DNA of 5,018 bases, from IMG/VR virus record IMGVR_UViG_2634166492_000001; one strand, 5' to 3'. The position numbers were made by a program, and so were the translations under genes. How positions within the stretch are numbered: position 1 is the first letter of the stretch; every line of letters starts with the position of its first letter. The notes under the pieces were generated by a model. The model did not search any database and was not told the DNA's origin. It was given only the letters and a program-made list of their open reading frames with translations. Positions 1 through 5,018 of the stretch are shown here, in pieces. Source of the stretch: a virus. Taxonomy: Duplodnaviria; Heunggongvirae; Uroviricota; Caudoviricetes.

Positions 1-37
1 AAGATAGGGTCCGCAGGATGCTCAGGGCCGTGTCTCT

Positions 38-1214
<1,177 letters not shown>

Positions 1215-1250
1215 TGGAGCACCTGTGTTGTTCTGAGGTGAGCATATCAC

Positions 1251-1286
1251 CTCTGTTCAGGTGGCCAAATTCAGTGTGCCACTTCA
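1251..1286. repeat. IS911-like left terminal inverted repeat (IRL); inner boundary approximate
   Basis: Minus strand reads TGAAGTGGCACACTGAATTTGGCCACC from 1286 inward, matching the IRR at the 8 terminal bases and at the TGGCCACC block. Confidence 0.75.
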
Positions 1287-1376
1287 TTTCTTGCCTCAAA
1301 TGGCAGTACGTTAACTATTCAGTCAAATGGTGCGGCGTTTACTGCCACAACCATCAAGATAATCGCGGAGCAGTGA
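1287..1376 (+). pseudogene. 3'-terminal 29 codons of an ORF interrupted by the IS (possibly the tail-needle gp26-position gene by P22 synteny)
   Basis: Frame is open from the first base after the IS end (FLASNGSTLTIQSNGAAFTATTIKIIAEQ) to TGA at 1374..1376, which overlaps the next gene's ATG (TGATG), a typical coupled junction. Identity of the gene is inferred from position only. Confidence 0.4.
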
Positions 1377-1831
1377 TGATTCAGTTCAAACCAACGCGAA
1401 ACATCGACCTGATCGAAGCAGTAGGAAATCACACTGACATTATCGCCGGGAGCAACAACGGCGATGGATACGACTACAAGCCTGAATGCCGTTACTTTGA
1501 GGTTAACGTGCACGGGCAGTTCGGCGGAATTGTTTACTATCAGGAGATTCAGCCGCTAACCTTTGATTGCCACGCCATGTACCTGCCAGAGATTCGTGGA
1601 TTCAGCAAGGAAATCGGGCTGGCGTTCTGGCGATACATTCTGACTAACACCACCGTTCAGTGCGTCACATCGTTCGCTGCGCGCAAATTCCGCCACGGTC
1701 AGATGTACTGCGCAATGATTGGCCTTAAGCGTGTAGGAACCATCAAGAAATACTTCAAAGGCGTGGATGACGTGACGTTTTACAGCGCCACACGCGAAGA
1801 ACTAATCGACTTCCTGAATCACGGGAGATAG
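1376..1831 (+). CDS. P22 gp14-position protein (151 aa), function unknown
   Basis: ATG at 1376 with GGAG 5 nt upstream; stop TAG at 1829..1831. It sits immediately upstream of the gp7-like gene, as gene 14 does in P22. The track ORF start at 1214 lies inside the IS and is rejected. No motif recognised by eye. Confidence 0.8.
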   Translation: MIQFKPTRNIDLIEAVGNHTDIIAGSNNGDGYDYKPECRYFEVNVHGQFGGIVYYQEIQPLTFDCHAMYLPEIRGFSKEIGLAFWRYILTNTTVQCVTSFAARKFRHGQMYCAMIGLKRVGTIKKYFKGVDDVTFYSATREELIDFLNHGR

Positions 1832-1833
1832 CC

Positions 1834-2526
1834 ATGTTATATGCATTTAAGCTGGGCAGAAAACTGCGCGGCGAGGAACCTTATTGCCCTGAAAAAGGCG
1901 GGAAAGGTGGCAGCTCTGATAAAAGCGCAAAGTATGCAGCAGAAGCTCAGAAGTATGCCGCAGACCTGCAAAATCAGCAGTGGCAGACGATCATGAAAAA
2001 CCTTGCTCCGTTCACGCCTCTTGCGGAGCAGTATGTTAACCAGCTTCAGAACCTTTCCAGTTTAGAAGGTCAGGGGCAGGCACTTAATCAGTATTACAAC
2101 TCTCAGCAGTATAAAGACCTTGCAGGTCAGGCTCGTTACCAGAGTCTTGCTGCTGCGGAGGCGACGGGTGGACTTGGTTCGACAGCCACAAGCAATCAAC
2201 TGGCTACGATCGCGCCGACACTCGGTCAGTCTTGGTTATCAAACCAGATGAGCAATTACAACAATCTGGCAAACGTTGGGCTTGGTGCGCTGCAAGGTCA
2301 GGCAAACGCCGGGCAGACATACGCCAACAACATGAGCAGCATTGCACAGCAAAGCGCAGCTCTTGCCGCTGCTAATGCCAATAAACCATCAAGTCTTCAG
2401 ACAGCAATTAGTGGCGGAACGTCTGGTGCGATTGCCGGTGCAGGTCTTGCCAGCCTTTTGGGAATATCAACACCTTGGGGCGCTGGCATTGGTGCTGGTA
2501 TCGGATTGCTTGGCTCGTTGTTTTAA
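1834..2526 (+). CDS. DNA-ejection (E) protein, P22 gp7-like (230 aa)
   Basis: ATG at 1834 with GGGAGA upstream, 2 bp after the previous stop. Q/N/A-rich protein with a Gly-Ala-rich hydrophobic C-terminus; size matches what I recall for P22 gp7 (about 229 aa) and position matches gene 7. Confidence 0.85.
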   Translation: MLYAFKLGRKLRGEEPYCPEKGGKGGSSDKSAKYAAEAQKYAADLQNQQWQTIMKNLAPFTPLAEQYVNQLQNLSSLEGQGQALNQYYNSQQYKDLAGQARYQSLAAAEATGGLGSTATSNQLATIAPTLGQSWLSNQMSNYNNLANVGLGALQGQANAGQTYANNMSSIAQQSAALAAANANKPSSLQTAISGGTSGAIAGAGLASLLGISTPWGAGIGAGIGLLGSLF

Positions 2527-2535
2527 GGGGTAATC

Positions 2536-3867
2536 ATGGCTACTTGGCAAGGATCAAATGGCGGATTGTTAGCTGGTATCGGCGGCGTCAACTCAAACGC
2601 TCCGAACGTAAATGACATCGGCAATACGCTTCAGCTTATCAGGCAGAACAATGATATTGAGCGTTCAGGCGCTAACAATGTTGGGCTGACTGCTTTGCAA
2701 GGCCTTTCAGGTATTGCGGGGGTGTTTCAGCAGGAAAAGCAGGCTCAGCGGCAGAAAGAATTTCAGCAGGCGTACGCTAATGCTTATGCGTCTGGTGATC
2801 GCGGTGCTTTGCGTCAGTTGGCTACTCAATATCCAGACCAGATTGAATCCGTTCGTAAAGGCATGGGATTCATTGATGAAGACCAGCGTAATTCTATCGG
2901 CACCTTAGCGGCTGGCGCACGCCTTGCGTCATCGTCTCCAGAAGCAATGCAATCATGGCTGCAAAACAACGCCGGTGAGTTAGCTCGTGTTGGCGTTAAT
3001 CCTCAGGACGTCGCTCAGATGTACCAACAGAACCCGCGGCAGTTCGGCGAATTTGTCGATCACCTGGGGATGAACAGTCTCGGACCCGAAAAATACTTTG
3101 ACCTACAGGATAAAATGCAGGGTCGCCAGGTTACCATGCGCGGTCAGGACCTGGATTCGCAAACCGCCGCTCGGAATCAGGCAATCACAATGCGCGGGCA
3201 AGATATCCAGGCGAATTTAGGTCAGCAGCGCATTAATCTGGACGCAGAAACAAACCGCATTAACAACGAAAATAAGCGCCTTGACCGGATGCTATCAGCA
3301 GAAACTAACGACCTGAAGCGCCAGGAAATACAGAGCCGCATAGCAGCCAACAACCAGCAGTTGCAGCAGAAGCAGCAAGCGCTAAATGATGGCTACAAAG
3401 ACGGCATCAACACCCTCACAACCAGCATGTTCACTCTGAACGATATCGTTAGTTCTCCTTCACTTAAGAGCATTACAGGCTTACGTGGAGTAATCCCCAA
3501 CGTTCCAGGCTCACAGGCTGCAGACACTCAGGCACGACTTGATACCTTTAAATCCCAAGCATACCTGACAGCGGTTCAGGCCATGCGAGGCATGGGCGCA
3601 CTTTCTGATGCCGAGGGCAAAAAGCTCGACCAGGCTGTTGGTTCGCTGCAGAACTCGCAGAGCGAGGAGTCCTTTCGTCGCAACGCTGGCGTCATCCTGA
3701 ACACGCTCAACCAGAAGCGTAATGAGGCGGTTGGTAAGTACGTTCAGCAAAACGGTATCAAGCGAGTGGAAGCGCCTCAGGCTTCTATAGATTACCTGAA
3801 GCAGCACCCCGAGCTGTCAATCGACTTCATTAATCGCTACGGATATCTTCCATCTTTGGGGCAGTAA
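2536..3867 (+). CDS. DNA-ejection (E) protein, P22 gp20-like (443 aa)
   Basis: ATG at 2536 with AAGGGG upstream; stop TAA at 3865..3867. Q-rich, predicted coiled-coil protein in the gene 20 position; P22 gp20 is about 471 aa from memory. Confidence 0.8.
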   Translation: MATWQGSNGGLLAGIGGVNSNAPNVNDIGNTLQLIRQNNDIERSGANNVGLTALQGLSGIAGVFQQEKQAQRQKEFQQAYANAYASGDRGALRQLATQYPDQIESVRKGMGFIDEDQRNSIGTLAAGARLASSSPEAMQSWLQNNAGELARVGVNPQDVAQMYQQNPRQFGEFVDHLGMNSLGPEKYFDLQDKMQGRQVTMRGQDLDSQTAARNQAITMRGQDIQANLGQQRINLDAETNRINNENKRLDRMLSAETNDLKRQEIQSRIAANNQQLQQKQQALNDGYKDGINTLTTSMFTLNDIVSSPSLKSITGLRGVIPNVPGSQAADTQARLDTFKSQAYLTAVQAMRGMGALSDAEGKKLDQAVGSLQNSQSEESFRRNAGVILNTLNQKRNEAVGKYVQQNGIKRVEAPQASIDYLKQHPELSIDFINRYGYLPSLGQ

Positions 3868-4473
3868 ATGGCTAATTACCGTGATTTGTTAGAGCAGGCT
3901 GGCGCACGTTACGGTGTGCCAGAAGGGTTGATGACTGCACTGGGTGCCAAGGAGTCTTCTTACAACCCTGCCGCAGTAAGCTCCGCCGGGGCTGTAGGAT
4001 TGACTCAGGTCATGCCTGGGACATGGCGTGATATGGGTTATACCGATGAGCAAATGCAAAACCCCGAATATCAGGCTGACGCTGGCGCGCGCTATCTGGC
4101 AAAGATGTACCAGCAGTTTGGTAACTGGCGTGACGCTCTTCAGGCTTATCACGACGGTCCCGGCAACGTTATGAAGGCAAAGCGTGGTGAATATACGCCA
4201 GGACCTGAAGGCCGCGGTTACGTTGATGATCGCTTTGCTCAATGGGCTGGTGACCCGGTGACAGACTCAACAGTCGAACAGCGCGCCACCTCTGCAAAGG
4301 TACATCCTCAGCAAGACCCTAACAACCCGTTTGCACAACTGGAAGTACAGTCATCCGAACAAGTATCGGCATCAGGTGTGCAGTCAGACCCAAATAATCC
4401 ATTTGCTCAGATTGAGCAGCAGGCAGCCAGTCAGCATGCCTTCGCAACTCTTCACTATGGCGCGTTCTTTTAA
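3868..4473 (+). CDS. SLT-domain lytic transglycosylase (201 aa) in the third ejection-protein (gp16) slot
   Basis: ATG at 3868 directly abuts the previous stop (TAAATG). Family-1 lytic transglycosylase motifs are readable: [24 protein letters not shown] (E-S ... GLxQ, catalytic Glu at 3952..3954) and [10 protein letters not shown] (AYNxG-like). C-terminal third is low complexity with two DPNNPFAQ repeats. Confidence 0.85.
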
Positions 4474-5018
4474 AGCCGTAGCCAATGGCAAAATTTATAT
4501 CGGAAAAATTGACACTGACCCGGTAAATCCTGAAAACCAGATTCAGGTTTATGTAGAGAATGAAGACGGATCTCACGTCCCTGTTTCTCAGCCAATTGTT
4601 ATCAATGCTGCCGGATATCCTGTGTACAACGGGCAGATTGCCAAATTTGTAACTGAGCAAGGCCATTCAATGGCTGTATATGATGCGTATGGTTCGCAGC
4701 AGTTCTATTTTCAGAATGTGCTGAAGTACGATCCTGATCAGTTAAAGCAGTTACTTCAATCAGATGAAGGAGCTGCTCACATTGGCACTAATAGCGGAAA
4801 AAATCTCCAAGAGGAGCTATTTGCAATAAAAAATGAAATATATCAAGACCCGCTTACATCGTGGCCTTTCGGTGGAACATTAAAAATAAAGCAAGGGGTG
4901 TACGATATCGCGTCACCACTCGTTCTTGATTACGGCAACTATGACGCTAAATTTATTGGTTCGACAGGAGTCCGTGCTCATTATTCCGGAGAAAATATGG
5001 CAGAAACGATATTTAACT
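4436..5018 (+). CDS. Tailspike protein, 5' part (P22 gp9-type head-binding domain then divergent receptor-binding module); continues beyond window
   Basis: Translation ...[48 protein letters not shown]...[27 protein letters not shown] aligns almost residue for residue with recalled P22 gp9 residues about 10-113. No stop before 5018. Start is ambiguous (ATG 4436, ATG 4457 or TTG 4412); the frame is open back to 4262. Confidence 0.9.

Follow-up and report, generated by a model that had tools for sequence, protein, structure and literature searches.

A gene overlap in a defective SfX-type prophage remnant of Shigella flexneri is very probably the scar of a 2,600-bp deletion between 7-bp repeats

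We analyzed a 5,018-bp stretch of phage DNA (the window), which is the entire draft contig AMWM01000449.1 of assembly GCA_000826695.1 and in which an open reading frame for an SLT-domain protein overlaps the beginning of a tailspike gene. We conclude, with a probability of about 0.93, that this odd overlap was left when a deletion between two copies of a 7-base repeat removed 2,600 bases from an already-dead SfX-type remnant; as part of that whole explanation, the same confidence applies to the assignment of the window to a defective Shigella flexneri prophage remnant of SfX type (P22-like, Lederbergvirus), of which it is a fragment. Both conclusions were reached by comparing sequences. The host is indicated by the names of the matching proteins, the identity of an IS911 element, a gtrX gene with 97.2% identity to the SfX record L05001.1, and a location next to proA.

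Gene layout of the window

An IS911 element of the IS3 family occupies 38..1286 on the minus strand. Its 1,249 nt agree fully (100%) with annotated IS911 elements of S. flexneri virulence plasmids, by which identity its ends were set, and it carries orfA (912..1214, minus strand, Pfam HTH_Tnp_1) and orfB (minus strand, the frame with the rve domain, ending at 46). An inverted-repeat search of window 1-1400 found no pairs of 15 nt or longer. On the plus strand, the final ~90 nt of a tail-needle gene of the P22 gene 26 type follow (1287..1376), recognized by alignment to loci L012 and L013 and to Escherichia coli PapM-32-1; window 1286..4440 aligns with 8751..11904 of L012/L013, where the tail-needle-knob gene spans 7993..8841, and the end of the PapM-32-1 'tail needle knob protein' gene aligns with window 1287..1378.

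Five further features lie downstream, all on the plus strand. A gene 14-type gene of 151 aa (1376..1831; DUF2824, PF11039, E = 5e-53) holds the position of the Sf101 'head assembly protein', and is followed by a gp7-type ejection protein of 230 aa (1834..2526; PF25688 P22_gp7, with ~98% nucleotide identity to Sf101 hereabouts) and a gp20-type ejection protein of 443 aa (2536..3867; PF16928 Inj_translocase), an exact copy of which is present on many S. flexneri-type contigs. The truncated SLT-gp16 ejection-protein gene, 201 aa, spans 3868..4473 (Pfam SLT at residues 7-110, E = 3e-26), and the 5′-truncated tailspike gene, assigned by the Pfam Head_binding domain and by sibling contigs, extends from 4436 off the contig end at 5018. 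The deletion junction itself, placed by comparing flanks with sibling locus L017, is the single retained GTCAGCA at 4430..4436.

Sibling loci carry the missing segment

Sibling loci were located through their exact match to the window's gp20-type protein. In four of them (L014, L017, L018 and L019), the order is gene 14, gene 7, gene 20, an SLT-gp16 gene of ~2.7 kb, an Arc/Mnt-family gene on the minus strand, a 570-aa tailspike gene, gtrX, gtrB and gtrA, and the SLT-gp16 gene has a full length of 911 codons in the sibling loci. Upstream of gene 14, L014 also has proA, an integrase gene and IS911; L010 shares this upstream context and diverges downstream of the SLT gene. Three of the loci (L014, L017 and L018) match both flanks of the window at 99.9–100% and differ from it by one 2,600-bp segment. 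Specifically, window 37..4440 has 99.86% identity to L014 7502..11904, and the sequence from window 4430 onward, when extended by contig L004 (100% identical to the window across their 2,075-nt overlap), is 100% identical to L017 5742..8930 over 3,189 nt.

Base by base, the left flank is identical through window 4436 and the right flank is identical from 4430. Within L017 2580..5800, the heptamer GTCAGCA has two copies only, at 3142 and 5742, so the lost segment is exactly 2,600 bp (5742 − 3142); the window retains one copy, and everything between the two sibling copies is gone. The repeat copies lie in SLT-gp16 codons 188-190 and in tailspike codons 10-12 of the parent, and the deleted interval contains SLT-gene codons 190-911, the repressor-like gene, and the tailspike's ribosome binding site, start codon and first 11 codons. 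Two repeat copies that become one, with loss of the interval, are the classical signature of illegitimate recombination, and the locus agrees with known short-direct-repeat deletions in each respect (a 7-bp repeat flanking the loss, twice in the undeleted parent and once in the derivative, the interval precisely lost) and with nothing notable unlike them.

The direction of change was a deletion, and not an insertion, because three relatives keep both a long gp16-type gene and a complete tailspike N-terminus. In the outgroups Sf101 and PapM-32-1, the gp16-type gene is long (911 and 673 aa, respectively) and a small gene separates it from a tailspike with its entire N-terminus, and L011 likewise has the long gp16-type gene and the complete tailspike; in Sf101, the order is the 911-codon SLT gene, a small minus-strand gene and then the tailspike. 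Sf101, which the window resembles apart from the excised interval, was considered as the direct parent and set aside, as it offers only 4 bp of exact microhomology (AGCA) and is superseded by the sibling loci with 7 bp.

A sequence-only reading of the window had proposed that one deletion took the 3′ part of a longer gp16-type gene, any cargo beyond it and ~30 bp from the start of gene 9. The siblings bear this out, as they contain the 2,600-bp segment between the GTCAGCA copies, and the junction does not arise by chance, with left-parent similarity stopping at 4436 and right-parent similarity starting at 4430. It had also left a sequencing frameshift as its alternative, which is excluded because the difference amounts to 2.6 kb rather than one base and because five assemblies carry the junction.

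The SLT reading frame ends in foreign codons

The first 189 codons of the SLT frame are native. Codon 190 has changed from Q to H; the TAA is then reached after 11 foreign codons, which are tailspike DNA in the wrong frame. Similarity to the 911-codon homologues (Sf101 and the siblings) ends at 4436, and the stop at 4471-4473 lies 38 bp beyond this first tailspike-homologous base, as first noticed when the frame was read on its own. The SLT domain (PF01464) scores 91.7 bits against a cut-off of 21.3, with residues 7-110 covering profile positions 2-110 of 117, and the frame contains AKESSY, GLTQVM and AYHDGPG, which we take to be the family-1 motifs, putatively catalytic. The C-terminal region PF26808 (Phage_P22_gp16) is absent from the 201-aa frame, which consists of the SLT domain and a linker alone; relatives of 797 and 576 aa have both SLT and PF26808. 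According to these profile matches, the deletion spared the SLT domain and removed the gp16-type part.

Within the linker, the peptide DPNNPFAQ[LI]E occurs twice, 14 residues apart (window 4315-4344 and 4387-4416), encoded by diverged DNA (gaccctaacaacccgtttgcacaactggaa and gacccaaataatccatttgctcagattgag). A programmed frameshift from the SLT frame into the tailspike frame, which lies at +1 to it, was also considered; it would call for a rare +1 shift and was rejected because the deletion accounts fully for the junction.

A gp16-type ejection protein with an N-terminal SLT domain is present in many P22-like phages and prophages, including Sf101, IME10, Dewey and Huey, and in some of the E. coli genomes (roughly 1,000) with a match to window 4200-4560; the SLT-type gp16 loci recorded here are window 3868-4200, L001 5001-7736 and L011 11333-13726. 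T7 gp16 likewise has an N-terminal SLT domain on a gp16-type protein. The first 573 nt of the SLT gene recur at 99.3% in a record named Klebsiella phage phiKp_30 (LC768498.1 10713-11284), which equals the identity to E. coli and Shigella phages and is unusually high for a different host genus. A review has placed P22 gp16 (609 aa) among P22-like proteins that have no transglycosylase domain (PMC8954989). SLT-bearing gp16 proteins are already annotated in databases, and the point bears on that review and is not new biology.

The tailspike has lost its start and 11 residues

The tailspike frame is open from 4262, directly after a TGA at 4259-4261, as the sequence-only reading had it. In the siblings, MSDIAANVVVS stands ahead of MPSQLF, and the codon for Ser11 is recreated in the window by the retained repeat copy. 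The Head_binding domain (PF09008, E = 2.3e-58) matches tailspike residues 1-102 to profile positions 12-113 of 113; as residue 1 aligns to position 12, the first 11 positions of the domain are absent. Absent as well is the N-terminal arm M-[ST]-D-I-x-x-N-[VI]-[VI]-[VI]-[SG], together with its own start and ribosome binding site, and a segment of 11-12 residues precedes [MN]P in all eight intact tailspikes compared (P22, Sf6, HK620, CUS-3, Sf101, PapM-32-1, L017 and L011). The earlier claim that the normal start and conserved beginning are missing thus holds, with the correction that 11 codons are gone, by the siblings and by the profile, and not ~9. Its comparison was to P22 gp9; the nearest N-terminus is of the Sf6/SfX type and not that of P22. 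The YDPDQ hinge, invariant in the alignment, is found at window 4727..4741. Similarity to Sf6 ends at 4743, and the receptor-binding part 3′ of the hinge is SfX-type.

The usable starts that are left are the former Met12 (ATG 4436) and Met19 (ATG 4457), between which gene callers are split. Followed to the stop codon in sibling contigs, their products would have 559 and 552 aa, respectively, compared to 570 aa for the intact protein. Ahead of ATG 4436, pairing with the anti-Shine-Dalgarno sequence amounts to −3.4 kcal/mol at a 12-nt spacing; ATG 4457 has no such pairing, and the values for the native tailspike starts are −5.6 kcal/mol (Sf101) and −5.8 kcal/mol (Sf6). Four upstream starts in the tailspike frame (TTG 4331, GTG 4376, TTG 4403 and TTG 4412) were rejected; they would add out-of-frame SLT-linker DNA, and gene callers do not choose them. 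A consensus scan of the plus strand across 1200..5018 returned no sigma-70-like sites. From such scans we infer that the remaining genes may have no useful expression, where read-through from an outward IS911 promoter or translational coupling would be possible sources. In the Sf6 virion, tailspike residues 4-16 are ordered, and their conformations differ among the three protomers of the head-binding trimer (PMC9728967). By analogy, the loss of residues 1-11 could plausibly disturb assembly.

At the other end of the tailspike gene, the 1993 GenBank record of SfX gtrX (L05001.1, 1,730 bp) includes ~390 nt that are the 3′ end of a tailspike gene, as aligned to L004 2783-4510; the glucosyl transferase is the sole feature listed beneath this match.

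IS911 and earlier decay of the remnant

IS911 stands in place of all but ~90 nt of the tail-needle gene and of everything upstream. In the siblings, it stands in place of the whole interval from the integrase gene to that same point in the tail-needle gene, and the remnant is therefore without early, lysis, head and most tail genes. In addition, codon 238 of SLT-gp16 has changed from CAA to TAA in all five undeleted siblings (L010, L014, L017, L018 and L019; positions 3291-3293 of L017). SLT-gp16 was therefore probably a pseudogene before the 2.6-kb deletion, and codon 238 is not readable in the window's own lineage because it lies inside the deleted interval. Other decay among the siblings includes a 207-aa tailspike fragment in L019 and an IS66 downstream in L010. 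As judged from these sequences, the prophage was already defective before the 2.6-kb deletion.

Left of IS911, window 1-37 (AAGATAGGGTCCGCAGGATGCTCAGGGCCGTGTCTCT) is unlike the siblings, whose IS911 abuts the phage integrase gene. These 37 nt had no megablast match in complete E. coli genomes or plasmids, and none in any fetched locus. Their difference from the siblings therefore points either to at least one further rearrangement in the strain, mediated by IS911, or to assembly ambiguity at a multicopy, repeated IS.

Relationship to SfX, Sf101 and P22

The SfX-type serotype-converting prophage and the SHI-O island of S. flexneri are among the systems closest to the window. Contigs that are 100% identical to the window where they overlap it carry gtrX after the tailspike gene; the window ends at 5018, before these genes, and the junction-bearing contigs L004-L006 show gtrX and the start of the next gene. 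In the siblings L014, L017 and L018, the full cluster of gtrX, gtrB and gtrA lies 3′ of the tailspike, on the proA side, in a locus that adjoins proA and has an integrase gene. Unlike SfX/SHI-O, the window's lineage has the extra 2,600-bp deletion that fuses SLT-gp16 to the tailspike. SfX is described in the Sf101 paper as a podovirus with a layout like those of Sf6 and Sf101 (PMC4159516), and gene loss in SfX-derived SHI-O islands is on record (PMC5402852); our literature search found no paper on this SLT-gp16/tailspike deletion allele.

Sf101 (KJ832078, genes 0010-0015) shares the gene order, ~98% nucleotide identity that covers genes 14, 7 and 20 together with the first 569 nt of its 911-aa transglycosylase gene, and a tailspike head-binding part that is near-identical in protein. 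It differs in being an intact phage that can be induced, in which gene 0013 is full-length and gene 0014 and the tailspike N-terminus are present, in having AGCA (4 bp) at the endpoints instead of 7 bp, and in the downstream conversion gene, which is oacB and not gtrX. The corresponding region of P22 (16/immI/9) also runs from ejection proteins, through a variable stretch that carries Arc/Mnt-type repressor genes, to a tailspike that has the conserved head-binding domain and YDPDQ, whereas its genes 16 and 9 never overlap and are separated by ~2.9 kb (sieA, mnt, arc and ant). The premise that these two genes are normally separate extends to HK620 (~1.2 kb), Sf6 (0.16 kb) and Sf101 (0.4 kb), and in CUS-3 several genes lie between them.

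E. coli PapM-32-1, isolated from a baboon in The Gambia, carries an apparently more complete P22-like prophage. From window 4743 onward, it has a 97.7% identical SfX-type tailspike, then a gtrX-like glucosyltransferase, gtrB and gtrA (L009 8968-13301), and ybhB and bio genes come right after the gtr genes. The tailspike and gtr set therefore circulates in E. coli too.

Frequency of the junction and alternative explanations

The same junction is present in five Logan assemblies from different runs (ERR6005117, ERR6004925, ERR6004928, ERR6004689 and ERR6004691), which apparently belong to one sequencing project and may represent a single clone, and which support the junction as assembled sequence. 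Four of the five junction contigs are 100% identical to the window, and that of ERR6004689 has 3 SNPs over 2,857 nt. Among contigs sorted by tailspike form, the 570-aa form (S. flexneri) is found on 76, the 559-aa form on 4 and the 552-aa form on 3, and a separate 552-aa variant is on record with an S. flexneri label. The five assemblies, together with the recorded truncated tailspikes (4 and 3 contigs versus 76), therefore indicate a real minority allele. A 22-mer across the junction had 0 matches in a contig collection that holds one genome per species. No record among 50,697 phage records covers both sides of the junction, and of the complete E. coli genomes (5,426), 1,094 have a partial match to 4200..4560 and none matches across the junction.

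The two arms could in principle have come from different phages, by illegitimate recombination that joined an Sf101-type left arm to an Sf6/SfX-type right arm, with no deletion inside a prophage. P22-like phages are highly mosaic, and the phage collection shows such a split: matches to 3868..4440 at 99.3% come from Sf101, IME10, Dewey, Huey and others, while the first 308 nt of the tailspike (4436..4743) are closest to Sf6 (99%). Yet single S. flexneri loci hold both arms at 99.9–100%, with the intervening 2.6 kb, and because the arms are contiguous there, no second parent is needed. We consider an inter-phage origin very improbable.

The overlap could instead be a natural and functional arrangement, in which a ~200-aa SLT protein ends within a tailspike that starts at MPSQLF and the two are translationally coupled. 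The SLT stop comes 35 nt after the candidate start at 4436 and 14 nt after that at 4457, a spacing at which re-initiation is conceivable; gene callers do call the 559-aa and 552-aa tailspikes, and the SLT domain itself is whole. Against this, the junction is spanned by none of the phage records or complete E. coli genomes counted above, the N-terminal segment is found in every intact tailspike compared, the final 11 residues of the SLT frame are out-of-frame tailspike DNA, and the locus contains IS911 and has lost most phage genes. An intact phage with precisely this arrangement, which the sequence-only reading had named as the observation that would overturn a deletion, was found neither in the phage records nor among those tailspikes. 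We regard a designed overlap as exceedingly improbable.

An artefact could also mimic an overlap, either through a frameshift error or because a short repeat led to a chimeric assembly. In its favour, the window is a short draft contig (5,018 bp) with IS911, a multicopy element, at its end, and its leftmost 37 nt have no match in the siblings. It has almost no likelihood in view of the clean 2,600-bp absence where a 1-base indel would be expected, a 7-bp repeat far below assembler k-mer length, the recurrence of the junction in five other assemblies (one with its 3 SNPs elsewhere), and the separate deposition of 552-aa tailspikes, one labelled S. flexneri.

Proposed history and meaning

Under the deletion explanation, the ancestral order would have been IS911, the 3′ tail of gene 26, genes 14, 7 and 20, SLT-gp16, a small Arc/Mnt gene on the other strand, the tailspike gene, gtrX, gtrB and gtrA, with the integrase gene beside proA just outside IS911, as in the siblings. 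A single intramolecular deletion of 2,600 bp then occurred between the GTCAGCA copies in the SLT-gp16 and tailspike genes, likely by replication slippage or another RecA-independent form of illegitimate recombination at microhomology, a mechanism to which the 7-bp repeat is our guide. The event fused the two genes out of frame, so that the SLT frame now ends at 4473 after 11 foreign codons; it removed the Arc/Mnt-type gene along with the intergenic region, and stripped the tailspike of its Shine-Dalgarno sequence, start codon and 11 N-terminal residues. As a product of out-of-frame fusion, the overlap is therefore a mutational scar and has no designed function.

It is very unlikely that the scar has been co-opted, either through a clipped tailspike, re-initiated at ATG 4436 or 4457 and acting alongside gtrX as a free enzyme that binds or cleaves O-antigen, or through a free 201-aa SLT protein acting as a murein hydrolase of the host; such a tailspike would no longer be able to dock on a virion. 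The deletion scar is, by comparison, unsurprising: all of its components come from known families, the junction is a textbook short-direct-repeat deletion, and the whole is ordinary prophage decay.

For annotation, the frames called as a 201-aa 'lytic transglycosylase' and as 552/559-aa 'tail spike' proteins are pseudogene fragments, from which neither a short SLT protein of a new kind nor a novel start of the tailspike should be deduced. The junction sequence (GCCAGTCAGCATGCCTTCGCAA) could serve as a marker for the S. flexneri lineage with this gtrX remnant. The significance is slight beyond such bookkeeping, in annotation and possibly as a lineage marker; the locus shows, cleanly and at base resolution, how a serotype-converting prophage is whittled away while its gtr genes are kept.
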